DNA of 64,000 bases from contig CAZFAO010000007.1 of assembly GCA_964516875.1 (NCBI GenBank), forward strand, positions 1,464 through 65,463. Direction: 5' to 3'. The translations under genes were made by a program, and so were the position numbers. The stretch's first letter is position 1. Each line of letters starts with the position of its first letter. The notes beneath the pieces are model-generated. The model was not told the DNA's origin and made no database searches. It saw nothing but the letters and a program-made list of their open reading frames with translations. Of this stretch, positions 560 through 14,671 are shown piece by piece. Source of the stretch: an uncultured Burkholderiales bacterium (GTDB taxonomy: Bacteria > Actinomycetota > Acidimicrobiia > IMCC26256 > JAGPDB01).

Positions 560-3500
560 GTGATAGGGGTTAATGCATCGACGCGACTAAAAACGGGAGT
601 AAACACGCTCACCCGGTTCTCCATGCCGCTCATAATTATCGCAACATTCTTCTCTTTTCTTATCATCAACACAGCTCAAGCGACACCGTATCACGAACTT
701 GTTTTGTCTCCCAGTTACGCACCTGATGAATATGTGACTACGTGGGAAACGTATGTTCCTCCGGGAACCACTGACAACAGAATAGCTATCGCACTCGACA
801 TTGAAAACAGTTCATCTGTTGTCGTCGACTGGGGTGACGGAGCAGTTGAAACCAACGTAACACTCGAGACTCCTTCTCATCTTTATGCCGAGCCGGGCAT
901 ATACGAAATTAAAATTTCGGGTGGTCTGACATACTTTACGACTCTGCGATCTTATGGAAAGCTTCTCTCCGTCGAACAATGGGGATCAACTCCATGGTCA
1001 TACATGGGAGAAATGTTTCGTGGAGCACAACACATTGTTTTTAACGCACTAGATGTTCCTGATCTCAGCAACGTCGCAAGCATGTACCGAATGTTCTTTG
1101 GCGCTTCATCATTCAATTCAAACATCAACAACTGGGATGTATCCAACATCATTGATATGCATGAAATGTTTTCTAGCGCAACAGCATTTAACCAACCGCT
1201 GAACGACTGGGACACATCGAGCGTCACCAATATGAGTGAAATGTTTCACTATGCATCAGCATTTAATCAACCGCTCGATAACTGGGACGTGAGCAATGTC
1301 ATCGACATGGGCTCAATGTTTTGGGGCGCTACAGCATTCAACCAAAATATCAACACGTGGGATACAGGCAATGTCACTTCGACTGGCCACATGTTCGCTA
1401 ATGCGAGTTCATTTAATCAACCGTTAGATCAGTGGGATGTCTCGAACGTTACGTACACGACGGCAATGTTTGAAGGAGCGGCTTCATTCAACCAAAATAT
1501 CAACACATGGAATACGGAAAGCCTGATATCAACTGCCGCAATGTTCGCTATTGCATCGTCATTCAATCAGCCCCTCAACAACTGGGACACATCCAACGTC
1601 ACCGACACCAGAGAAATGTTTCGGGGCGCACGAGTATTTAACCAACCGCTTGACAACTGGGACACATCCAACGTCACCGATATGAGCTCTATGTTTGACG
1701 CTGCATGGGTATTTAATCAACCCCTTGATAGTTGGGATACGAGCAACGTCACCACCATGAGCGACATGTTCTATTACGCAGCAGTATTCAACCAATCACT
1801 CAATATTTGGGACACATCCAACGTCACCGATATGAGTTCTATGTTTTACGGCGCACGAGAGTTTAACCAACAGCTCAACGGCTGGGACACGAACAACGTT
1901 ACAACCATGGCTGAAATGTTTGCTGGGGCAATGTCTTTTGACCAGTCGCTTGCTAGCTGGGATGTATCCAATGTTACAGACATGACAAACATATTTGGCG
2001 GACGCGAGGGTGACGATCCTTATTATGATGCGATTTTAAGTTCCACCAACTACGATGCCACCCTTAGCGCATGGAGCGGACTTACATTACAAGGTAACGT
2101 AACTTTTAACGCACGCGGTTCGTATTATTGCGAGGCTGAAAATGCTCGTGAATCAATTATCACTAACTTCAATTGGACAATCATAGATGAAGGGAAAGAA
2201 TGCCCAATTGAATTTGAAGAAAGCGACCTCTTCATTACGACATGGCAGACCGACAACCCCGGCTTTAGTTATGGCTCTGTGTCTCTCAGCGCAGACGAAG
2301 ACTATTCCTATCGGTACTATGTCGATTGGGGGGATGGAAATACGGACATGAACGTGAAGTCCGGAATTTCTCATGACTATGCTGAACCTGGAGTCTATAC
2401 AGTCAAAATTGCTGGCGATTACCCTCAGTTTGGCGCAAGCCACCTGACAAAGCTTCTCTCTGTTGAACAATGGGGAACAATCCAATGGGAAACCACAGAA
2501 TATATGTTTAGCGAGGCCTTGAATGTCGTTATTAATGCGACCGATATTCCTGATCTCAGTAGCGTGTCGAGCATGGAAAGAATGTTCTATGACATCTCTT
2601 CGATCAATTCGAACATCAACAACTGGGATGTATCCAACGTCACAAACATGAACGGAACGTTTTGGGGAGTCTCTTCGTTCAACCAACCACTCAACAACTG
2701 GGACGTATCCAACGTCACAGACATGCGCGGGATTTTTTGGGGCGCAACGTCTTTTAATCAACCCCTCAACAACTGGGACACGAGCAACGTCACAGACATG
2801 CGCGGAATGTTTGGTTTTGCATCATCTTTCAACCAACCACTCAACAACTGGGACACATCCAATGTCACAGGCATGACCGCAATGTTTGGGGGAGCCTCAT
2901 CCTTCAATCAACCTCTCAACAACTGGGATGTATCGAACGTCACAGACATGAGCGAAATGTTCACTCAAGCCACATCTTTCAACCAACCACTCAACAACTG
3001 GGACACATCCAATGTCACAGGCATGACCGAAATGTTCTCTCAAGCCACATCATTCAATCAACCTCTCAACAACTGGGACGTGAGCAACACCACAAACATG
3101 CTCGGAATGTTTTCAAGTGCTGAAAACTTTGATCAATCTCTTGGCAGCTGGGATGTGAGCAATGCGACCGATATGAGATACATGTTTGGCAACTACGATG
3201 AACTAATTGAAAATGCTATGGGTGATACCCCCTACTCAGAATGGCCAGAATATATTAGAGATATGTACGGCCTTCCCCTATCTGGTCTCTCCGTTGAAAA
3301 TTACGATGACACGCTAAATTCATGGAGTCAACTCGATCTTCTCGACGATATTATCTTCGATGGCGGAACGAGCCAATTCTGTGACGCTGAAGGTGAACGA
3401 CAATCAATAATCTCTGATTTTGGATGGACTATAAACGATGCCGGAAACGGATGCATCACACCAGAAGAAGAAACGCCCCCAACAACCACAGTGGCAACAA

Positions 3501-3895
3501 CTGTTACAACAACTCCCGCTCACGTCACCACGACCCCCACCACAACACCAACTCCGTCGACAATTCCCTCGACAGCGCCCGCGAAAACAGCAACAACAAC
3601 ACCAGGCTCACTGCTCAATTTCCCAGGCAGCAGCACAGATAATCTTCCCGTTGTCAAAGCAGAAGAAGCACTCGAGTACATAGCGAAAGCACAAACAAAA
3701 GCCCTTGCCAAACGAGACGTACGTCAACCATTACTGGGGAACTACTCCCCCACAAACAACAACGCATACGACGCAATCTTGTTGCTCTTGCTAGCACTCG
3801 CCGTCATAGCGTACACGCAGCGACAAAAAATACGTGACATGATTCATCGAGAAAAATCAGTTATCTCTCACCACTCACCACCAAAATGGAAATAG
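560..3895 (+). CDS. Large secreted DUF285/BspA-type repeat surface protein with two [PKD-like VDWGDG module + 25-aa repeat array + Cys-capped domain] units, a Thr/Pro stalk and a C-terminal TM anchor
   Basis: 1111-aa ORF with a GTG start at 560. The N-terminus has basic residues, then a hydrophobic stretch ending AQA, which looks like a signal peptide (an in-frame ATG at 623 is an alternative start). About 22 repeats follow the pattern MFxxAxxFNQPLxxWDxSNVTxMxx, typical of DUF285 / bacterial surface protein ~26-residue repeats. There are two VDWGDG...H.YAEPG.Y.(I/V)KI.G motifs, a TTPTTTPTPST stalk, and a C-terminal helix AILLLLLALAVIAY followed by a basic tail. Confidence 0.85.
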   Translation: MIGVNASTRLKTGVNTLTRFSMPLIIIATFFSFLIINTAQATPYHELVLSPSYAPDEYVTTWETYVPPGTTDNRIAIALDIENSSSVVVDWGDGAVETNVTLETPSHLYAEPGIYEIKISGGLTYFTTLRSYGKLLSVEQWGSTPWSYMGEMFRGAQHIVFNALDVPDLSNVASMYRMFFGASSFNSNINNWDVSNIIDMHEMFSSATAFNQPLNDWDTSSVTNMSEMFHYASAFNQPLDNWDVSNVIDMGSMFWGATAFNQNINTWDTGNVTSTGHMFANASSFNQPLDQWDVSNVTYTTAMFEGAASFNQNINTWNTESLISTAAMFAIASSFNQPLNNWDTSNVTDTREMFRGARVFNQPLDNWDTSNVTDMSSMFDAAWVFNQPLDSWDTSNVTTMSDMFYYAAVFNQSLNIWDTSNVTDMSSMFYGAREFNQQLNGWDTNNVTTMAEMFAGAMSFDQSLASWDVSNVTDMTNIFGGREGDDPYYDAILSSTNYDATLSAWSGLTLQGNVTFNARGSYYCEAENARESIITNFNWTIIDEGKECPIEFEESDLFITTWQTDNPGFSYGSVSLSADEDYSYRYYVDWGDGNTDMNVKSGISHDYAEPGVYTVKIAGDYPQFGASHLTKLLSVEQWGTIQWETTEYMFSEALNVVINATDIPDLSSVSSMERMFYDISSINSNINNWDVSNVTNMNGTFWGVSSFNQPLNNWDVSNVTDMRGIFWGATSFNQPLNNWDTSNVTDMRGMFGFASSFNQPLNNWDTSNVTGMTAMFGGASSFNQPLNNWDVSNVTDMSEMFTQATSFNQPLNNWDTSNVTGMTEMFSQATSFNQPLNNWDVSNTTNMLGMFSSAENFDQSLGSWDVSNATDMRYMFGNYDELIENAMGDTPYSEWPEYIRDMYGLPLSGLSVENYDDTLNSWSQLDLLDDIIFDGGTSQFCDAEGERQSIISDFGWTINDAGNGCITPEEETPPTTTVATTVTTTPAHVTTTPTTTPTPSTIPSTAPAKTATTTPGSLLNFPGSSTDNLPVVKAEEALEYIAKAQTKALAKRDVRQPLLGNYSPTNNNAYDAILLLLLALAVIAYTQRQKIRDMIHREKSVISHHSPPKWK
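1013..2003 (+). repeat. Coding tandem-repeat array 1 (~13 x 75 nt / 25 aa)
   Basis: The translation shows 13 consecutive units starting MF.. and ending ..NVT.M.., with a 75-nt period. Confidence 0.8.
2505..3194 (+). repeat. Coding tandem-repeat array 2 (~9 x 75 nt) with stretches identical at the DNA level
   Basis: 2825-2879 is identical to 2975-3029 (55 nt). The string ttcaatcaacctctcaacaactggga recurs at 2903 and 3053. The string aaccaaccactcaacaactgggac also occurs at ~2681. Confidence 0.85.
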
Positions 3896-3920: not shown

Positions 3921-5312
3921 TCAATAATCGCCATCGCTTACACGTTCGTATACAGATGTGCTCTCGAGTGGATCAGCAAAATCGAGAGTGCACATTTTTT
4001 CTTGTGCACTTGGCCCAAACGAACGAATCACAATCGGTGCATCCAGTGCTTTTTCAATGTGCTCCTCTAGTTCTTGGATGCACGTTATTGTTTCGAGAAC
4101 GGGGGTTGCCTGCGCGCACGCCTGCGCTAAAAGCTGCTGGCGATTTAAATCACGCTTGTTTCCGGGAATGATTCGAGTATTGCCAGAATCTGTTGGCTCA
4201 AAAAGTTCTTCAAAAATATCGACGTCACTGTATTGATTACAGATTTTCCAATCTTGGCCCACCCAATCACATCCGGTGAGAACAATTCCATCAACTCCGC
4301 CTGCCACTTCACAAGCGTAACGATGAGCGACGAGATCTAACCATCCCATGCGAAAACTTCCCTGCCACTCGCCACATCCGTTGTGCATTTCGTTGATTGA
4401 TTCTTCCAGTTTCGGGTCATGTGTCACGAGCGGTCCTGCACCATGACGAGTTGTATATGTTCTCATCACACCCAAGCGCACAACCTCACCATCAAATCCA
4501 ATGTCATTCAACAACGTGAACGCATTTTCGTGCGTCGTTGTACTCCAGGTCGTATACGGATGGAAACCAAACCATTCATCGAGCAACACGCCTTGCGCGC
4601 CCTCAAAAATGATTGTTTCTTGGGCGTGTGTGTGCAGTGCGAAGTCGCGGTTGTTGATAATGAAAACTTTGTCCGCCCATGTTCTGTATTCGCTAGCTAA
4701 TTGTTCGATAAGTGTGTCGTCGGAAAAAAGTGGAGAATCTAATGCATCAAAGTGAACACCTGACTCCGTGCCGAGAAGATGTAGCTGGCCCCGTTTGTAA
4801 TCGCGAAGTTTGCGCAAACGCATTGTGAGATTGCCCGTTATATCTTTAACGCGAAGAACAAGATTGGGTGCATCAAGCGAGTCACATTGCGTCTCTCCCA
4901 CTCCCTGACCACAACTTCCGTGAGCATTGCCGGCCCGATGCGTTTCACGGATGCGATTCATTGATACTTGCCACGGCGTGATGATGAGGGCATCAGAATC
5001 AACACTGGTGCGATCCCAAATATCATGGACGCCAAGGTCGATCAAATGTTGAGCTTCTGTCATCATGTTCAATGGATTGATCAACATGAATCGCGAAAGA
5101 TGTGTACGGGATGTGGAAACAAAACTTCCCGACCCAAATTGTGCAAAGGTGTGATGGCGTCCGTCGGGTGTGATGACATTGTGCGCGGCTTGCGCCCCTC
5201 CGCAATGACGAACAACGAGTGATGATGCGCACTGTCGAGCGAGAAAATCGACAGTCGTTCCCTTACCCGCATCGCCGTACCCGAGATCCGTGACAATAAA
5301 CGCTTTGCCCAT
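3921..5312 (-). CDS. Divergent PurA-family (adenylosuccinate synthetase-like) GTP-dependent ligase, probably not the housekeeping PurA
   Basis: 463 aa. PurA landmarks recognised: GDAGKGT (P-loop GDEGKGK), GGAQAAH (GGHNAGH), FEGAQGVLLD (FEGAQGTLLD), YTTRHGAGP (YSTRVGAGP), GWLD, SFGP (STGP). The GATTGRRRR aspartate loop is replaced by CGEWQGSFR. SD-like AAAGGGA lies upstream of the ATG. Confidence 0.75.
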   Translation of the reverse strand: MGKAFIVTDLGYGDAGKGTTVDFLARQCASSLVVRHCGGAQAAHNVITPDGRHHTFAQFGSGSFVSTSRTHLSRFMLINPLNMMTEAQHLIDLGVHDIWDRTSVDSDALIITPWQVSMNRIRETHRAGNAHGSCGQGVGETQCDSLDAPNLVLRVKDITGNLTMRLRKLRDYKRGQLHLLGTESGVHFDALDSPLFSDDTLIEQLASEYRTWADKVFIINNRDFALHTHAQETIIFEGAQGVLLDEWFGFHPYTTWSTTTHENAFTLLNDIGFDGEVVRLGVMRTYTTRHGAGPLVTHDPKLEESINEMHNGCGEWQGSFRMGWLDLVAHRYACEVAGGVDGIVLTGCDWVGQDWKICNQYSDVDIFEELFEPTDSGNTRIIPGNKRDLNRQQLLAQACAQATPVLETITCIQELEEHIEKALDAPIVIRSFGPSAQEKMCTLDFADPLESTSVYERVSDGDY

Positions 5313-5346
5313 TTAATCCCTTTCGTTCGCGGATCAGACCCGCTTA

Positions 5347-5379
5347 TGCTGCGCGCTCTCCCCTCGAGAGCACACAGCA
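5347..5379 (-). promoter_or_regulatory. Intercistronic RNA hairpin between the vWA and PurA-like genes
   Basis: Minus-sense ugcugugugcucuc-gaggg-gagagcgcgcagca forms a 14-bp stem (2 G.U pairs) with a 5-nt loop. No U-tract follows, so it is not a canonical terminator. Confidence 0.4.
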
Positions 5380-5394
5380 ATATCTCCGCAGCGC

Positions 5395-6447
5395 CTACAC
5401 GCGAGATGAACCCAATCCTCGACCTGCGTCGACATCGAGATCCGGCAGCGAACCACTCGCGCGGGCAACCTGGCCACCCTTGCTCGGTTTGTTTACCACG
5501 GAAGAATTTGGATCGATGACCGCAAGCGCAGAACCAACAGCTTTGCGTTGCGCGCTCGTTGCACCTAACTCTTTGAGGTCGTCATCGACAATATCTGGCG
5601 TCACTTTGTGTTCAAGCACTCCCACAATTCCCGCAATGGTGTCACACACTGCAGCAGGGTCGTTCAACACAAGAGCGCGTTCACCAAGAAGTTTTCGCCA
5701 TTCCGGCAAAATGTCATCTTGATGGTACATGCCTTGTTCTTGAAAGAGAAAGAACACCTCATATTGTTCTTGCAACTTTGCAAATACCTCAGCAGTGGAA
5801 ACATTTGCCTCCGCGCCGAGACCAGCATATTTTTTCAAGTGTTCTTTTCTCACTTTGTCATACGGCTTTTCATCGCCGATGAAAAAGAGATAGCCCTTTC
5901 GTCCTTGTTTCTCGGCACTCTCAAGATACGTATGATACGCGTGCAAATACGCAAGCAATTCATACGTTTCATGCGTTTGTCCACCTCCGTTGCCCTCCAA
6001 GACCATTGCCTCGAGTTGGGCATCAATTCGGTTGTCGCTTTCAAACTGTCCAAACTGAACCGGAAAGCGATCTGTATAAGCATCACCCGTTGCCGACACA
6101 TTGATTTGCGGATCATCCACATACCCTTTGGTCTGCAACAGCGAAAACAGCTTCGGCAAACTTGCGTGCGTTGTGCGCGCCGCTGCGATGTTCGAACCCG
6201 TCACGTCGAGGACAATTCCTATTGCCGTTGGATTCGGATGTTCGTCGGTAATCATGACTTCCCTCATGACCTGTCCTGCGTGCGGGCTTGTTGGGCCTGC
6301 AACAGTTTTTGCGTCAAGCAGCGCGTTGACCGCACTCGCTCGACCTGATCGGACTTCGTAATCGTGTCCGAATGTCGGAGCGTTCGTCGCCTTTTTGGCT
6401 TTCACGCTCGAGTCGTATGTTCCTACATTCCAGCTTCCGCCACCCAT
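5395..6447 (-). CDS. von Willebrand factor type A (vWA) domain protein with an intact-looking MIDAS
   Basis: 350 aa. It has VLDVTGS (DxTxS), a later EGNGGGQTHE (GGxT) and FFIGDEKP (xxDG/E-like), in the order and spacing expected for vWA. A perfect SD (AAGGAG) lies 6 nt upstream of the ATG at 6447. Confidence 0.7.
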   Translation of the reverse strand: MGGGSWNVGTYDSSVKAKKATNAPTFGHDYEVRSGRASAVNALLDAKTVAGPTSPHAGQVMREVMITDEHPNPTAIGIVLDVTGSNIAAARTTHASLPKLFSLLQTKGYVDDPQINVSATGDAYTDRFPVQFGQFESDNRIDAQLEAMVLEGNGGGQTHETYELLAYLHAYHTYLESAEKQGRKGYLFFIGDEKPYDKVRKEHLKKYAGLGAEANVSTAEVFAKLQEQYEVFFLFQEQGMYHQDDILPEWRKLLGERALVLNDPAAVCDTIAGIVGVLEHKVTPDIVDDDLKELGATSAQRKAVGSALAVIDPNSSVVNKPSKGGQVARASGSLPDLDVDAGRGLGSSRV

Positions 6448-6501
6448 TATTTCTCCTTACTTTTAAGTGAATATTTCCTCAGTGTTCCCCTTTGTTTTCC
6501 A

Positions 6502-7662
6502 TTACCTCACAATCGAATCAGTGAGTTGGAGGGGTCGGAAAACGCGTGGGTGGAACGGCTTTCCGAGGTTTTCGAGTAGGTCATCAAACTCGGCTAAAAG
6601 TCTGAAGGCATTATCAGGTCGCCCCATCTGTGAAGCGACGATGCATCCTTTGAAATGTCGCTGCATGGGGACAGGAATGGAATCAGGAAGTTCACCGGTA
6701 AGAGGATTTCCTCCACAGAGAAAGATCATTGACCGCGCAGCCATGGCGATGTCGGTTCCGGCATTCGGTGATATTTTCTCGGTGACTTCTAAAGGATACC
6801 AGTCGCGATATTTATCAACGACTGCTTGGATAGGAGTAAGAGCAGATTTTTTTTCGGTGCTGGAATAGCACCAGTCGATGAGAATCACGCCATGTTTTTC
6901 TGGCTCAATCAAAATGTTTGTGGGAACAACGGCGCCGTGAACAATTCCGTTGTCGTGAGCAAAACCAATCGCACATAAAAGGCGACGCCAGATCCACGCC
7001 ATGTGCTTGGGATCTAAACCTCGCGGGAAATACTCGTCTTTGAGTTGTGCGAGATTCACAAAGTTCTTGTCAACAAGTGCAATGACATTTGCTTGACGAT
7101 TGGGTTTTCCCGTTTCGGCAAACGCAAAAGAATCAACCAATGTCGAGACAAAGGGGCGCCACTGCTCTTCGGCTGTGTCACTGCCAAGAATACGAAGCGC
7201 TTTTTCTTCTGCTTGCATCAAATCGTTATCAATCGAACTGCGCACAATTTTGACGAGCGTTGGCGTTGTTGCGCCCGCAATTTCTGATTCCGCGAGATAC
7301 ACGTCGGCTATATCCCCTGTGGCAAAACCTTTGATGATTCTGTGTGTTGCGAGTTTTGTCTCAATCTCAGCAAGAGGTTTAACCTCTCCGTAGGTATCGT
7401 TGTTGATTGCGTCGTGAGCTTTGTGGTGCATGTCCGTCATGCGAGTAAATGCTTGTTCTGCAAGCGCCTTTTGGTCAGGATCGGGATAGAGATCAGGATG
7501 GAGAACGCGCGCGATTCGTCGGTACTCGCGATTAAGATTTTTTTGGCGAGTTGTGTTGTCTTTGCCAAGATCACCAAAGATTTCAACGTACGATGTGGCG
7601 TCGAGAACGAGCTTTGCAGCAACTGCTAGCGAATATCCCCCATCGTTGACCACGCAGTACAC
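6502..7662 (-). CDS. J-domain (DnaJ N-terminal-like, HPD present) fused to a protein-kinase-like domain with a degenerate catalytic loop
   Basis: 386 aa with a GTG start. The N-terminus reads SYVEIFGDLG...LNREYRRIARVLHPDLYPD...AFTRMTDMHHKAHDAI, a J-domain pattern with HPD. The C-terminal part carries TLVKIV (VAIK-like Lys), QAEEKAL (alphaC Glu), HDNGIVHGAVVPTNILI (HRDxKxxN with HRD changed to HGA) and ILIDW (DFG changed to IDW). Confidence 0.65.
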   Translation of the reverse strand: MYCVVNDGGYSLAVAAKLVLDATSYVEIFGDLGKDNTTRQKNLNREYRRIARVLHPDLYPDPDQKALAEQAFTRMTDMHHKAHDAINNDTYGEVKPLAEIETKLATHRIIKGFATGDIADVYLAESEIAGATTPTLVKIVRSSIDNDLMQAEEKALRILGSDTAEEQWRPFVSTLVDSFAFAETGKPNRQANVIALVDKNFVNLAQLKDEYFPRGLDPKHMAWIWRRLLCAIGFAHDNGIVHGAVVPTNILIEPEKHGVILIDWCYSSTEKKSALTPIQAVVDKYRDWYPLEVTEKISPNAGTDIAMAARSMIFLCGGNPLTGELPDSIPVPMQRHFKGCIVASQMGRPDNAFRLLAEFDDLLENLGKPFHPRVFRPLQLTDSIVR

Positions 7663-7867
7663 CCCAATCTGTTTTTAGGCATAGAAAAATAGACCTAATT
7701 TTGGTGGTTTCCACCCGTTACTTTTCAGTAACTAGTGATTAGATAGAGAGTAACATCATGTCCGATTTTCGTAAAGGTCCTGGTCACGACGCGTGGCTTC
7801 GTTCATTGCATTTCCGAAATTGAGATTGCGAATTGATGACTTGTTGCATATCACCTAAATTGGTTTA

Positions 7868-8797
7868 ATGACACGATTTAACACTATTCGAGCTATTGGA
7901 ATATCCGCTTCCCTTTTCGTTGCCAGCGGGTGTGGCACTTCAGACCCAAGCCATGACGCGGTAAAAACTATTGATCTCGTAGACATCGATCGTGCGCCCG
8001 AAGGAACAATCACTATGTCGAATGGATTGCGCATCACAAATTACACAGCGGGTAAATCAACTGTGATGTGGAATAGTGACGGAATAAGACTTCACGTAGA
8101 TTCTCCAAAAAGGATTGATGGTCAACTTTCACTTACTTTCGTCTCAAAAGACAAAAACAATCCTCTTGTGAAAAACGTGCGAATGCAATCTTTTCACATT
8201 GATGCTGATTCATTTCGAAAAAGAATACCTACTGAAGAGATTGATACTTTTCTTAAGGCCAATGATCTTGATCGCGAAAAAATCGCTATTCGCGTTCGCG
8301 TTACCGGAAAAATGGCGGGGGTATTGAGCCCCTTCAACGTCTCAACAAAAATTAGTTATTATGATGCTGCGAAATGGCCATTAGCTAAACCGGAAGCGTA
8401 CAAAACACCAAATGGCAAGACATCGTGCGAATTGTCGCATAACGAAACAAGAACATCCGTTAGTGTAGTTGGAGATGGAAAAGGTGGAACGCGCTCAGTA
8501 ATAAGTTCAAGGACTGTCAGCATTGAAGATGGTCACGTTGACTTTGTCGCTGTGAAAGGTCGAACATACGCAATCAAATCTCACCCTTCAGATAGCGATG
8601 ACACTCTTGAAGGAACAATAACAATTGATGATAACGATGAAAAAGTAACAATCGATATTGGTAACTTAAAAAGCAACACACAAGAAGTGCTCGGCTTACT
8701 AGATCGTGAACCTCTCAGCTTGAACCACATAAAAGCAGATCTTAAATACCGCCATGGAAGCGTTGTCGACGGGGAATCATCGTGTACAGTTCGATGA
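7868..8797 (+). CDS. Orphan lipoprotein
   Basis: 309 aa. The signal peptide ends in the lipobox LFVASG-C. I recognise no other motifs. The gene looks AT-richer than its surroundings by eye. Confidence 0.6.
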   Translation: MTRFNTIRAIGISASLFVASGCGTSDPSHDAVKTIDLVDIDRAPEGTITMSNGLRITNYTAGKSTVMWNSDGIRLHVDSPKRIDGQLSLTFVSKDKNNPLVKNVRMQSFHIDADSFRKRIPTEEIDTFLKANDLDREKIAIRVRVTGKMAGVLSPFNVSTKISYYDAAKWPLAKPEAYKTPNGKTSCELSHNETRTSVSVVGDGKGGTRSVISSRTVSIEDGHVDFVAVKGRTYAIKSHPSDSDDTLEGTITIDDNDEKVTIDIGNLKSNTQEVLGLLDREPLSLNHIKADLKYRHGSVVDGESSCTVR

Positions 8798-10581: not shown

Positions 10582-13500
10582 TTAGCTCGAGGAAGCTTGG
10601 CGCGATTTACGACGACGCAACATCGTCAACTGGAGCAAGAATCCAACACCGATCACTGCCGCAATATCAATGAGCAATAGCGCATTCGATATACCGGTAT
10701 TAGCAAGCTCTCCGCTAATAGACGTTCGAGGCGCAGGAACAACAGTGCTTGTGGGAACAGCCGTTGGAGGAACAGTCGTTGTGGTCGGAACGCTCGCCGG
10801 GTCAATCACCAACCCAAGATCAATTGTGAGATTATCATTTGCATCCGAACCCGTATGGCCTCCTGTTTCACCCGTTGGATTGTTGAGATAGCTCACACTC
10901 AGAATGTTCGTTCTGAAACGAGAACCATCGACAATCAAGTCTTGCTGATCATCTTCATCGACATCATCTGTTGGATCATCCGAACCTTCGGGAGCTTCAA
11001 TGAAGTCGTGCAACGGCCCACCGGAATCAAAGTTAGAAGAATCAAGCTCGATGTAATAATCGCCCGGAGCTACACATTGCACCAACCACCGTCCATCAGA
11101 ATCGGTCGTGGTTGTCTTGGAAAGAACATCGTCTCCCCCACCAATATCACCGTCGATACCAACGGAATACAAGTTCAGTACAACGCCTTCAATTCCTGTG
11201 TCACCAGAATCATATTTTCCATTACCGTTGACGTCATTGAACACTAGGTTGCCGAGATTCAAACACGACGGCGTCACAGCAGAAACATCCGAAGACAACA
11301 CGGGCAAAGCTAAAGCCGTCGCGCGCGCTTGCCAACTGTTGGTGTAGACCTCTTCCCCATCATTGTCATTTGTTTCAAGTTCAAAGTGGAAGAGACCATA
11401 TTGTCCCGCTGTCATCGAAACGGTTTTGATACGGATGGCAGTCACTTCATCTGCGTCAGGACAGCCAGACGTTCCCAGTTGCGAAAATTCACAACTCCAC
11501 TTACCTGTTCCCGCTGCGGGGTTGCTTGAATCATTGGGATCATCGCTCAGCGTTGCAGGATCATCGGATGTGACATAAATTTTGCTGATGAGTCCTGTTG
11601 AAAATGTTTCTTGTGCCATCGTCAACGAGTATCCACCATCGACATCGGAGACAGGCGAACGACCATCGTCGTCGTAAGGAAATATATCGATTCCGTCCAT
11701 GACTTTTGCGCTACCCGTTAAGTTTCCGAACGCAAGCGTGAAGCCCAGTGTTCCATCCAGATCGATGGAAGTGTCGCTGATGTATTTTTCGATATTGAAT
11801 GATTGCGCTGTTGCGATTTGAACCCAGTCGTCATCATAGGGACCTGACGTTGGGTCATAGTGATATGCCGTACCCGTTGTTCGAAACGGAAGTGTCGCGG
11901 GCAAATCTTGCAAACCCTCTTCTGCATCTATCCACGCTTTATTCTGCAGATATGCTGCGTTAGGAATGTAACTGGCAATACGCGTTGTCACTTGGAAATT
12001 ACCAAACAACGTGTAGTCCGTCGCTGGTGTTTCTGGTGATCCACTCTGATCGAATGTGAAATCTCCACGGTCCCAACGAAGAGTTGTGTATCCGTAGTTC
12101 GTTCTCGCTGCGGGATTTGCAATACACGCAAAATTGGCAACGGCATTACAGTCAGTAATAACAGCTGATGGTGTAAGTGTTGCCGATTGGTACACCATTC
12201 CTGGAGGCATGACGTCATAGATATGAACACCTCCGATTGCAACATCAACGTTAAATGACATTCCGGCTTTGATGTTATATGTCCACGTCCCGCCCAGTGA
12301 CACAGAGGCAGCAACATCAACCGCCGGTGACGAATCGTACTTTTGAATGATGGCTGTCGGCTGCACAACAATTGCGCGGTCAGCTAAAGCGATACAACTA
12401 TAGAGTCCCGACGATGCGTTCCAGATATCATTTTCCGGAATACAGGTAGGGTTTGAACCGTACCACGCACCTGAATTGATGTTCGATGCTTTATACCGAT
12501 TGAAGTTGAACATCTTTGTATTTTCAGCCAGTCCAGTTTTTGCTCGAAGCGATTGATACGTTGTGATAGTCATCCCGGGAGGAAGCGCTTTTAAAATTCG
12601 CACGCGCACCAAGTTCACATTCGCCAAACCACCAGGATGCGTAGACGGATCCTCCACCCATGTCAGCGAACCGCTGTCGCAGTTAACAGTGCGCTGTTGC
12701 GATGATGTCGAAAAAGTTGTGCCCGTACTTGCGTATTCGACCACAACATCGGAGTCACCGATCACAGGGAAAGAAGGATCAGGAGTTCCCACTTTGTACC
12801 AGCTATACCACGAATGCGATGAACCGCTCGCGCCGCTGGGGAGCGAAGGTGCTGAGTGTTCAATGAAATTGTATTTTGTTTGGTCAATTGCATCACAGCT
12901 CGTCCAGTCTTCCAGACCATACGCTGAGGTTGTATTGACATCGGCGACTTGCGCTTGCGCAAAGTTCATTCCCGGTGCAACGTAGTTATCGCTATCCCCA
13001 GGACCGAGTGCGCCTTGCGTTAAACCAAGATCAGCTTCCGGTCCCGAACCCACGCGGCCACCATATTCTGTAAAGTACTTCGCGGTCCACGGTCCTGTGC
13101 CAGTGAGGTAATTAAAAACGACACAGTTTTGGTTGTTCGAAACATCATCAACACCTGACGATCCTCCTGTAACGGCAGCATCACCGATGTCATTGCACCA
13201 ACTGATGAAGTTTGCACGAACATCACGGTCGCCCGCTGTTTGGTCAAAATCGAGAATTGTTTGGAAAGGATATTTAATGCGAACTACCTGTGTCGCGACG
13301 GGGGCTTGGTTGTGCAGACCCGCGGGTGAGTTATATATAGAGTTGGATGTCCCTGAGTTATATGCCCAGTAGCTTGTGCGGTTGGTTGATTTTCCATACG
13401 GAAACCAGTCGGGCGACCAGTCAATTCCTGTTGCAGAAATATCGATATCGGTACCTACACCACCCGATTGGGTACATGTCCACGAACCTGAATTTTGGAC

Positions 13501-14385
13501 CGCAAGAATATCTCCCAATGTTAACGACGACGAGTTAGGCAAATACTGCTGGTCACTTGTGACGGGTAGACACCCCACCAACTCGCCTTCGGAGTTGACA
13601 GGAAGTTGTGACGAATCACCAGTGGCGAGTTTGTCATCAAGACTTAATGTGGAAAAAGCTCCAGCGTTAAGACCCTTGACTTGTCCAACTTCAGGAGATT
13701 TCACTTCCGTTTGAACACCCCAGTCGACTTGGATATATTCAGGATCACCAACTCCATCGCGAAGAATAGTGATAGGGCCTTTTTGTTTACGGACTTCGTA
13801 ATCGCCTGCTTCGGAGACAACCTCAACGGTGTCGGTACCTGACGCTTGAGGTGTGGGGTTGGTTCCCAAACTGGCATCAGGAGTCATTGTTGCGCTGACA
13901 GTAAATTGAGCAGTGACGTCGGTTCCATTGGGTACAGATGATTTTCCGAACCACGCACCACTGACGTTAAGAGTTGTTCCAGTAGAGAATGTGCCTGAGA
14001 CAACACAAGTCATTGTTTTTCCGTCAACGCTCAGAGTTTTCGTTCCACATGCACTAGGAAGACTATTGAGCATCCAGGCAACATCAGCGCTGGTTGAAGT
14101 GAGCGTTGCAACAATGGTGACGCCACTTAATTGGTGTGGCGATGCATCCAATGTATTCATGTTGACATCGAACGTGTAACTGGTGGTGTCGAGTGAGGCG
14201 ACTAATCCATTCGACGCATTGGGATCAATGGAAATAAAAGGCGCGGTACCATCGGCTGTTTTGGTCAAAGCTGCTCCGAGCGCTACAACAGGGGGCGCAG
14301 CATAGGCTTTGCGGATAAGTGAAACTGAACATATCGACGTCGCCAGAACGGTGATGGCGATGAGCGCGAGAAGTCGTTTTGACAT
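10582..14385 (-). CDS. Very large LAXTG-anchored cell-wall surface protein (adhesin-like) with a C-terminal SdrD-B/Cna-B-like domain
   Basis: The ORF reaches 14433, but the likely start is M17 (MSKRLLALIAITVLATS...AYA signal peptide). The C-terminus has LANTG (10693-10707), a hydrophobic stretch and RRRKSR, forming a sortase signal. The stretch NLVFNDVNGNGKYDSGDTGIEGVVLNLY...TTTDSDGRW...PGDYYIE matches the SdrD B-like repeat pattern. A TTTTVPPTAVPT stalk is also present. Confidence 0.8.
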   Translation of the reverse strand: MSKRLLALIAITVLATSICSVSLIRKAYAAPPVVALGAALTKTADGTAPFISIDPNASNGLVASLDTTSYTFDVNMNTLDASPHQLSGVTIVATLTSTSADVAWMLNSLPSACGTKTLSVDGKTMTCVVSGTFSTGTTLNVSGAWFGKSSVPNGTDVTAQFTVSATMTPDASLGTNPTPQASGTDTVEVVSEAGDYEVRKQKGPITILRDGVGDPEYIQVDWGVQTEVKSPEVGQVKGLNAGAFSTLSLDDKLATGDSSQLPVNSEGELVGCLPVTSDQQYLPNSSSLTLGDILAVQNSGSWTCTQSGGVGTDIDISATGIDWSPDWFPYGKSTNRTSYWAYNSGTSNSIYNSPAGLHNQAPVATQVVRIKYPFQTILDFDQTAGDRDVRANFISWCNDIGDAAVTGGSSGVDDVSNNQNCVVFNYLTGTGPWTAKYFTEYGGRVGSGPEADLGLTQGALGPGDSDNYVAPGMNFAQAQVADVNTTSAYGLEDWTSCDAIDQTKYNFIEHSAPSLPSGASGSSHSWYSWYKVGTPDPSFPVIGDSDVVVEYASTGTTFSTSSQQRTVNCDSGSLTWVEDPSTHPGGLANVNLVRVRILKALPPGMTITTYQSLRAKTGLAENTKMFNFNRYKASNINSGAWYGSNPTCIPENDIWNASSGLYSCIALADRAIVVQPTAIIQKYDSSPAVDVAASVSLGGTWTYNIKAGMSFNVDVAIGGVHIYDVMPPGMVYQSATLTPSAVITDCNAVANFACIANPAARTNYGYTTLRWDRGDFTFDQSGSPETPATDYTLFGNFQVTTRIASYIPNAAYLQNKAWIDAEEGLQDLPATLPFRTTGTAYHYDPTSGPYDDDWVQIATAQSFNIEKYISDTSIDLDGTLGFTLAFGNLTGSAKVMDGIDIFPYDDDGRSPVSDVDGGYSLTMAQETFSTGLISKIYVTSDDPATLSDDPNDSSNPAAGTGKWSCEFSQLGTSGCPDADEVTAIRIKTVSMTAGQYGLFHFELETNDNDGEEVYTNSWQARATALALPVLSSDVSAVTPSCLNLGNLVFNDVNGNGKYDSGDTGIEGVVLNLYSVGIDGDIGGGDDVLSKTTTTDSDGRWLVQCVAPGDYYIELDSSNFDSGGPLHDFIEAPEGSDDPTDDVDEDDQQDLIVDGSRFRTNILSVSYLNNPTGETGGHTGSDANDNLTIDLGLVIDPASVPTTTTVPPTAVPTSTVVPAPRTSISGELANTGISNALLLIDIAAVIGVGFLLQLTMLRRRKSRQASSS

Positions 14386-14671
14386 AGTTGTAGCTGTAAG
14401 AAGGCGTTCCAACGATATCTCCGTTTTTTCCATCGCTTAATACAATATTTAAGCGTGCATGATTCTATGCGCTTATCACCTATATATTCGGGATATTTGG
14501 CCTCTCAGTTGAGCACATTATTGGGAGATTTGGCCGAAGAAATGGCCCTTTGGCGCATGCCGTATACGCGGCACAGTGTTTTTGTCGTACCCCTGGTGTA
14601 GGGTGATGACTAAGCACCGTTCTTATTGAGCATGAAGCTTTCTTCCCTAAATAATCGTCCAAGGAAGAATC

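Follow-up and report, generated by a model that had tools for sequence, protein, structure and literature searches.

We analysed a 64,000-nt stretch of the uncultured bacterial contig CAZFAO010000007.1 (assembly GCA_964516875.1), hereafter called the window, and focused on three adjacent minus-strand genes within it, here named A, B and C. In the open reading frame (ORF) listing, gene A occupies positions 6502..7662 (386 aa, GTG start) and is predicted to encode a J-domain followed by a protein-kinase-fold pseudokinase, gene B occupies 5395..6447 (350 aa) and encodes a von Willebrand factor A (vWA) protein with a metal ion-dependent adhesion site (MIDAS), and gene C occupies 3921..5312 (463 aa) and is predicted to encode a divergent GTP-dependent ligase of the PurA family. 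The gaps between the genes measure 54 nt (A to B, 6448-6501) and 82 nt (B to C, 5313-5394) and contain no notable ORF. A Shine-Dalgarno (SD) site, gtAAGGAGaaataATG, was identified 5′ of B, with AAGGAG placed 6 nt ahead of the ATG, and a second one, gaAAGGGAttaaATG, 5′ of C, with AAAGGGA ahead of the ATG. The database protein corresponding to A (P0241) begins three codons downstream of the ORF start, at 7653, and this annotated position is probably the true start of the gene. The trio is bounded by a convergent gene for a DUF285/PKD surface protein (560..3895), whose end lies 25 nt away from the stop codon of C, and by a divergent lipobox gene (7868..8797), which starts 205 nt upstream of A. 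This arrangement of ORFs, gaps, SD sites and flanking genes had been described in an original prediction made from the letters of the stretch, and it was confirmed here.

Homologous loci were retrieved by B alone, and we inspected the best 80 of at least 594 species genomes and 80 of 343 viral loci (IMG/VR), scoring the genes as collinear when a single strand carried them in the order A<B<C over no more than 5 kb. Collinear A-B-C was found in 71 of these 80 genome loci, and B and C without A in five; among the 80 viral loci, 61 were collinear and 14 carried B and C only. The genome hosts were mostly Actinomycetota (Streptomyces, Frankia, Nocardia, Actinoplanes, Micromonospora and Kitasatospora), together with Saccharibacteria and Chloroflexota. 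Many of the 343 viral loci with B were found on contigs of 120-455 kb, and a phage database held 201 Mycobacterium, 10 Rhizobium and 6 Vibrio records each for B and for a C-like protein. About 200 Bxz1-type mycobacteriophages carry the module; in phage Cali, which is of this type, gp251 ('kinase'), gp252 (B), the small gp253 and gp254 ('PurA') follow each other in order. The family hidden Markov model (HMM) of A detected no A-like gene in the Vibrio and Rhizobium phages, and B and C thus stand alone there. The adjacency of A, B and C is not a matter of chance; the obligatory core consists of B and C, which A often joins as a third gene. The earlier proposal that the three genes make up one operon is therefore supported by their co-conservation. 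In PHROGs, the three families are kept separate under the labels 'kinase', 'unknown function' and PurZ-like. The combination of a J-domain pseudokinase, a vWA protein and a PurA-like protein is undescribed in the literature searched, and, as had been stated before, no named pathway or defence system fits it, with PADLOC-DB v2 giving no match for B or C.

We then compared window C and 196 relatives (n = 197) with Escherichia coli PurA, with further alignments to solved PurA structures; E. coli numbering is used for substitutions, and all coordinates of the module refer to the minus strand. Window C matches the Pfam family Adenylsucc_synt over its full length (7.6e-57), and it scores under the NCBIfam cut-offs for PurA (NF002223/TIGR00184; 147.7 vs 402 and 135.4 vs 395.55 bits) and for PurZ (NF038379; 45.9 vs 300 bits). 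The P-loop GDAGKG (5259..5276) keeps the equivalents of D13 and K16 (196/197 each), with E14 replaced by Ala (168/197), and at least 173 of the 197 members retain D13, K16, H41, Q224, R272, GxGP, D333 and SxGP. The guanine-specificity motif reads LTGCD in window C (4266..4280; TKLD in E. coli) and retains D333, as do 196 of 197 members, while SFGP (4011-4022) corresponds to E. coli S414-x-G-P, of which S414 is present in 173, G416 in 194 and P417 in 187 members.

The catalytic and GTP-binding residues of canonical PurA were thus found in C, whereas those that bind L-aspartate were not. The L-aspartate loop (4341..4370) is remodelled to EWQG-SFRMGW, compared with ATTGRRRRTGW in E. coli. Across the family, T300 is replaced by W, Y or F (196/197), T301 by Q (175/197) and R305 by F or W (194/197), R303 is deleted in every member (197/197), and V273 is replaced by His (196/197), seen as H290 in TRHGAGP of window C (4431-4451). 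S240W is invariant (197/197; W256 in TTWST, 4539-4553), and N38Q, T42N and T128S also occur in nearly all members; most of these changes are shared by 194 of the 197 members or more. Window C itself carries V273H, T300W, T301Q, the deletion of R303 and R305F, each being the majority state (172-197 of 197 members). Judged from these residues, the catalytic and GTP machinery of C appears to be intact and the L-aspartate pocket appears to be rebuilt with aromatic residues, and C is likely to be active with a changed substrate. A divergent PurA with a shifted substrate pocket had been anticipated in the original prediction, and both the score below the PurA cut-off and the replaced aspartate residues agree with it. 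In four loci (L020 of Kitasatospora sp. KL5, 11122-13002, and L023, L030 and L075), C is fused C-terminally to a CxxC...CxxC zinc ribbon and a NUDIX domain whose Nudix box is intact, in a NudC-like architecture.

Gene B gave no match in Pfam or PADLOC-DB v2, and its NCBIfam match was sub-threshold only. Its AlphaFold2 (AF2) model (predicted local distance difference test, pLDDT, 87.6) has the vWA alpha/beta fold, and Foldseek placed it close to integrin I-domains and viral VWFA proteins (probability 1.0, TMt ~0.6). It matches phrog_2971 ('unknown function') at 1e-109, and the family comprises 751 clusters at E<=1e-30 in a 50%-identity library. The MIDAS motif D81-V-T-G-S85 (6193..6207) is completed by T161 (in the region 5962-5997) and by D192 of GDE (5869-5880). 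In 71 sequences, D81, T83, S85, T161 and D192 are invariant or nearly so, as are E160 and E193, and in the model the MIDAS residues sit at the beta1/alpha1 and beta4 ends, which fits vWA topology. The earlier vWA (MIDAS) assignment of B is upheld by this fold and by the full MIDAS, despite the missing Pfam match.

Both ends of B showed further features. The N-terminal motif MGGGSWNVGTY (6415..6447) follows an almost invariant family pattern, MGxGxW-x4-Y, with G2 conserved in 88/88, G4 in 84/88, W6 in 85/88 and Y11 in 87/88 sequences, and residues 1-10 are flexible in the model (pLDDT ~52). The C-terminal tail (aa 318-350, 5398..5496; GSLPDL...SSRV, with the family ending [RK]L) is disordered (pLDDT <65). 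Its occupancy was 0.67 where A was present vs 0.03-0.10 where A was absent, which suggests that the tail is the element recognised by A. Some B homologs are interrupted by an intein/Hint module (e.g. P0218, 595 aa; Mycobacterium phage Sauce A0A3G3M5V4), and in several C1 mycobacteriophages the B match falls in two pieces across ~1.75 kb, one annotated as HNH endonuclease; gene B is a target of homing elements.

In Pfam, A gave weak matches only, to DnaJ (E=3e-3, below cut-off) and to Pkinase (E=1e-4), and it matches phrog_3043 ('kinase') at 6e-64. The AF2 model of A (pLDDT 95.5) consists of a J-domain followed by a Hanks-type kinase fold, with the Pim1 and GRK2 kinases as the nearest solved folds (Foldseek, TMt ~0.72). 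The J-domain (~aa 25-90, 7393..7590) forms an N-terminal helical hairpin and contains the HPD motif of J-domain co-chaperones at aa 55-57 (7492-7500); in an alignment of 196 A-family members, H55, P56 and D57 are kept at 96, 98 and 97%, respectively. In the kinase-like domain (6553..7374), the beta3 Lys K138 (98%) and the alphaC Glu E152 (100%) are conserved together with H242 and W264 (100% each). HRD is changed to H242-G-A244 (6916-6939) and DFG to D263-W-C (6865-6876). The catalytic Asp is replaced by Ala244 in 193 of 196 members (98%) and the catalytic-loop Asn is mostly His, and the pair of HRD Asp and Asn that marks an active Hanks-type kinase is absent. From sequence and model, A is predicted to join a J-domain to a kinase fold that binds nucleotide but is catalytically dead, and the earlier calls of a J-domain and of a pseudo- or atypical kinase both fit these data. 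PADLOC-DB v2 returned only generic weak kinase matches for A (<=35 bits); its profile similarity reached 2.6e-9 for PD-T4-6, and 28 bits vs a cut-off of 460 for MAD6.

Targeted phmmer searches and a Pfam tally of the ORFs around the module were used to assess its neighbours. Of 86 bacterial loci, 75 have an ORF for NrtR or a Nudix protein beside the module, and NUDIX+NrtR_WHD was Pfam-confirmed in the loci checked. In loci of the Streptomyces, Frankia, Micromonospora and Actinoplanes type, the NUDIX+NrtR_WHD gene lies directly upstream on the same strand, and in those of the Nocardia, Lentzea and Saccharothrix type a Nudix-only gene follows C. In a Saccharimonadaceae locus (L086), the gene order was found to be nudix-APH, pncB, pncA, His_Phos, A, B, C, nrtR, nadE and nadD; in Saccharibacteria, the module lies within a cluster of NAD-salvage genes. 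A pair of GT-N7-AC palindromes, spaced by 41 bp, was found in four Saccharibacteria loci, and only upstream of A, where 0.15-0.27 would be expected by chance; GT-N7-AC is the NrtR core motif (PMC2330246). In Rhizobium phage Y65, B and C lie 3 kb from a phosphoribosyltransferase (PRT)-like gene and a NadM-Nudix gene. Outside the module and the NrtR/Nudix unit the flanks varied, with 75 Pfam families of which none occurred in more than 5 of 121 flanking ORFs. Neither the connection with NrtR, Nudix and NAD salvage nor the occurrence of the module in phages had been noticed in the original prediction.

A search for operators in the high-GC actinobacterial loci identified none; k-mers enriched there were rejected as operators, as they came from ribosome-binding sites and from the part of the gene that encodes the N-terminus of NrtR (YDP motif). 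The NAD clusters of three Saccharibacteria loci (L086, 2157-3779 and 5828-6658; L006; L008) also encode a NUDIX-APH fusion, APH being a small-molecule kinase, and a His_Phos_1 phosphatase directly upstream of A; no role in NAD salvage is assigned to either of them. In a further locus (L169, 13894-15501), genes for NADAR, NUDIX and 2H (2',5' RNA ligase-like) proteins were observed 3-5 kb downstream of the trio, and a divergent HD (YfbR-like) gene upstream of it, which adds to the neighbours that process ADP-ribose and nucleotides.

Around the trio, the window encodes comM, dprA, xerC, a whiG-type sigma factor, trmD, rimM, ffh, ftsY, ilvA, smc and plsX, together with yceD, coaD, rsmD, recG, pckG, uvrD, purK, etf and gpsA, and it is a core actinobacterial chromosome segment. 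The GC content (0.48-0.50) is unremarkable compared with the window mean (~0.48). The closest relative, an 'Acidimicrobiia' metagenome-assembled genome (L004) whose B is 74% identical to that of the window, shares the order comM, surface protein, xerC, whiG, a variable gene and A-B-C, and a contig from JGI (L168) has the same order from xerC onwards. The trio had been placed in what looked like an accessory island, a view that we abandoned because the GC content is normal, the surrounding genes belong to the core chromosome, and synteny, including the xerC-whiG adjacency, extends to these two related organisms.

The upstream region of A (7663..7867) holds an 18-bp palindrome, TAGTTACTGAAAAGTAAC, at 7717-7734 as a possible operator. 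This palindrome and ~100 nt upstream of it (7735-7840) are kept between the window and L004, whose proteins are only 57-77% identical, and the stretch may serve as an operator or leader of the operon. It is not of the GT-N7-AC NrtR type, and an Rfam scan of the window found no riboswitch or RNA upstream of A.

Several other features of the segment were observed. Between the whiG-type sigma gene and A, the three syntenic relatives each have a gene of their own, namely a lipoprotein (window, 7868-8797), a trypsin-like protease (L004, 7161-8612) and a 379-aa hypothetical protein (L168, 5364-6503), and this slot is a local hot spot of gene turnover beside a stable operon. The ORF that ends at 398 (region 141-398) and the DUF285/PKD protein (its end, 3700-3895) share a near-identical C-terminal membrane anchor (...ILLLL.ALA.I.YTQR.KIRD.IHREKSVISH.SPPKW) and are seemingly tandem paralogous surface proteins. 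The 1283-aa surface protein encoded at 10582-14433 of the window combines an SdrD_B-like domain with a stalk rich in Thr and Pro and a sorting signal of the LANTG type, and it is kept in L004 (1696 bits). A candidate tandem paralogue array at 33.4-36.1 kb was rejected, as it consists of the unrelated housekeeping genes yceD, coaD and rsmD.

We propose that B and C form the core of a module in which C is a ligase that does not use aspartate, B docks onto C, A links the complex to DnaK, and the whole is tied to NAD/ADP-ribose metabolism. As a complete package this reading is tentative, and we rate it somewhat short of an even chance. Here, C would probably bind GTP and a 6-oxopurine nucleotide and phosphorylate the 6-oxo group, and the activated carbon would then be coupled by C to an amine other than L-aspartate. 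The residues of PurA for catalysis, GTP and purine are kept in C, which makes GTP-driven phosphorylation of a 6-oxopurine, followed by attack of an amine, the likely chemistry; the amine would differ from L-aspartate, since an invariant, aromatic-rich set stands in place of all the residues that contact aspartate. MoxR-type activases, among them CbbQO, NorQD and CoxDE, work with vWA subunits, and B, docked onto C through its MIDAS or its N-terminus, could similarly be an adaptor or regulator, or else a substrate presenter. The J-domain of A would recruit DnaK/Hsp70 via HPD, and the dead kinase fold would probably hold the C-terminal tail of B, with Hsp70 taking the place of an AAA+ motor and providing the ATP-driven remodelling that MoxR provides for other vWA proteins. 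In most bacteria, an NrtR regulator that senses ADP-ribose, or a Nudix hydrolase, would control the module or be coupled to it. Such regulators and Nudix enzymes are found beside the module more constantly than any other neighbour, and its product or substrate therefore probably belongs to the turnover of NAD, ADP-ribose or adenine nucleotides. Large phages would presumably keep the nucleotide pool working during infection by means of this module.

Several observations weigh against this proposal. No NrtR or NAD gene lies near the trio in the window, L004 or L168, and for the window lineage the NAD link therefore comes from homology and not from local context. In the same Saccharibacteria loci that carry palindromes upstream of A, putative NrtR boxes were not seen before pncB or nadE, and the adjacent regulator may thus serve the A-B-C module only. 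Clustering of viral neighbours revealed no recurrent fourth gene and no recurrent NAD genes. In C, residues that bind the 5′-phosphate of inosine monophosphate (IMP) are altered, with T129C, a variable R131, and R143, which comes from the dimer partner in PurA, not conserved; the nucleotide substrate may consequently not be a plain nucleoside monophosphate. A conserved acidic C-terminal tail on C that could act as a MIDAS ligand was not found across the family, and this candidate was rejected, as the tail is unconserved and only the window lineage has the acidic extension. Finally, calling A a pseudokinase from one missing Asp can be wrong, as atypical kinases exist.

An alternative is that the trio is a conflict module, acting in bacteria as an anti-phage system triggered by ADP-ribose and in phages as a counter-defence that restores a depleted nucleotide. 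In one variant resembling NARP, NAD+ or adenine nucleotides would be rebuilt after the action of NADase or deaminase defences, with C using GTP to phosphorylate an oxygen, after which a nitrogen nucleophile, for instance nicotinamide, would displace the phosphate. We judged this explanation unlikely overall, albeit with a substantial residual chance. The ~200 Bxz1-type mycobacteriophages and the 343 viral contigs, many of 120-455 kb, are consistent with it, as are the mobility of the module across phyla and the different flanks between genera. Operons under NrtR-type control with vWA 'chaperones' have been predicted as ADP-ribose-centred conflict systems (PMC9503650, section 3.8), and reconstitution of NAD+ by phages is known from NARP1/2 (10.1101/2024.02.11.579819) and NARP3 (PMC13464706), but PurA-like or vWA proteins are unmentioned in the NARP papers. 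Likewise, the aromatic residues of the replaced Asp pocket (W, F, W, H) would suit a pyridine or base ligand, and ADP-ribose-1''-phosphate is a natural product of NAD phosphorolysis (10.64898/2026.01.28.702374). However, the residues that touch the hypoxanthine ring in PurA, Q224 and D13, do not vary in the C family, which argues that the activated substrate is still a purine and not a ribose. Moreover, within the window lineage the locus is stable and shows synteny, the trio includes no effector (nuclease, TIR domain or pore), PADLOC-DB v2 has no match for B or C and only a generic kinase similarity for A (35 bits), and the Pfam tally showed no recurrent defence genes in the flanks. The suggestion in the original prediction that the module has a defence role gained no positive evidence; hundreds of lytic and jumbo phages carry the module, and its flanks are not defence islands.

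A further alternative, which we regard as quite improbable, is a conjugation reaction, in which C would attach C6 of a purine nucleotide to the alpha-amine of Gly2 of B or, with B as presenter, to a different protein amine. The product would be an N6-linked nucleotidyl-protein, which A and DnaK would handle and whose adduct Nudix enzymes would trim. Across homologs that range from Vibrio and Rhizobium phages to actinobacteria, B keeps an almost invariant N-terminus, which is unusual for this part of a protein, and the segment is flexible in the model. Methionine aminopeptidase removes Met ahead of Gly, and such removal would expose Gly2. C keeps its chemistry without any aspartate-carboxylate contacts, B and C are never found apart, and in Kitasatospora a Nudix domain is fused to C. 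On the other hand, we know of no precedent for a PurA-family enzyme acting on a protein, the conserved N-terminus may be a mere interface element, and the argument as a whole is one of pure inference. In its boldest form, in which C joins the purine C6 to the N-terminal oligoglycine of B, or to a client amine presented by B, and releases no free metabolite, we consider the idea a long shot. If true, it would mean a new N6-linked nucleotidyl-protein mark, placed under ADP-ribose control, passed to Hsp70 by a J-domain pseudokinase and employed by bacteria as well as large phages.

That C is an ordinary adenylosuccinate synthetase, or PurZ for 2-aminoadenine DNA, with A and B as unrelated neighbours, we find barely credible: it has in its favour the full-length Adenylsucc_synt match, the many database copies named 'adenylosuccinate synthase' and the PurZ-like label in PHROGs, but the scores reach only 148 bits vs the purA cut-off of 402 and 46 vs the PurZ cut-off of 300, T300, T301, R303, R305 and V273 are replaced or deleted family-wide, C is strictly linked to B across phyla and phages, and purK in the window implies a de novo purine pathway, so that a canonical purA is expected elsewhere in this genome, as a separate canonical purA is in Actinobacteria such as Streptomyces.

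The module is real, strongly conserved and uncharacterised. To our knowledge, PurA-family enzymes are known for two reactions only, those of PurA and PurZ. C would represent a third branch of this family, found with its rebuilt amine pocket in the genomes of at least 594 bacterial species and in phages by the hundreds, and such a pocket implies an unrecognised purine-nucleotide reaction. Being always accompanied by a vWA/MIDAS partner and usually by a J-domain pseudokinase, the enzyme would exemplify a new way of coupling Hsp70 to an enzyme. The NrtR/Nudix linkage places the module within the biology of NAD and ADP-ribose, now a central theme of phage-host conflict, and genetic systems are at hand in cluster C1 mycobacteriophages on Mycobacterium smegmatis and in Streptomyces or Micromonospora strains.

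The module was also compared with known systems. C resembles PurA and PurZ in its full-length fold, P-loop, Asp13, His41, Gln224, GxGP and Asp333/SxGP, and differs from them in the replaced L-aspartate pocket, the invariant S240W, N38Q and T42N, and the altered IMP-phosphate residues; moreover, C is always encoded with a vWA protein, whereas PurA and PurZ are not. The PurZ companions datZ, mazZ and dpoZ are not named in the annotations of the three phage loci inspected; no homology search for these genes was made. The TerY-P triad (vWA, Ser/Thr kinase and PP2C), which the original prediction had offered as an analogy, is similar in placing a vWA protein beside a Hanks-type kinase fold. Here, however, the kinase lacks the catalytic Asp family-wide and is predicted to be inactive, A has a J-domain, the third gene is PurA-like, and no PP2C was found in the window flanks or among the 25 most frequent of the 75 flank families (121 flanking ORFs), so the analogy is not supported. 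The defence kinases of PD-T4-6 and MADS6 are weakly similar to A by profile, far below the family cut-offs.

NARP1/2/3 are, like this module, phage-borne nucleotide modules tied to NAD/ADP-ribose, and in phage Y65 B and C lie near NARP2-like genes; the NARP enzymes (Adps/Namat, NadV/NMNAT, PnuC/NadR, with NARP3 being PnuC+NadR, PMC13464706) belong to families other than those of A, B and C. NrtR-regulated NAD operons and the ARG-centred NrtR/WYL and vWA systems predicted by Aravind and co-workers resemble the module in a vWA component, in NAD-salvage neighbours, in an adjacent NrtR in most homologous loci and in GT-N7-AC palindromes in four Saccharibacteria loci (PMC2330246; PMC9503650, section 3.8). 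The window copy has neither an NrtR nearby nor a GT-N7-AC box. Unlike these systems, the module has no ADP-ribosylglycohydrolase, phosphatase or nuclease core, its enzyme is PurA-like, and it is also phage-borne. The two-gene unit nrtX-nrtY (PMC2330246) could conceivably overlap with B and C.

The pairs of a MoxR AAA+ protein and a vWA protein (CbbQ-CbbO, NorQ-NorD, CoxD-CoxE, RavA-ViaA and BchI-BchD; PMC9489729, PMC7824862) likewise combine a vWA/MIDAS adaptor beside a client enzyme with a supplier of ATP-driven chaperone activity. No MoxR/AAA+ domain was detected in the three window proteins (Pfam, NCBIfam) or among the 25 most frequent flank families, and in the homologous loci it is A and C that lie next to B. 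In contrast to these pairs, the present module has a J-domain carried on a pseudokinase, which would recruit Hsp70, and a client that is PurA-like.

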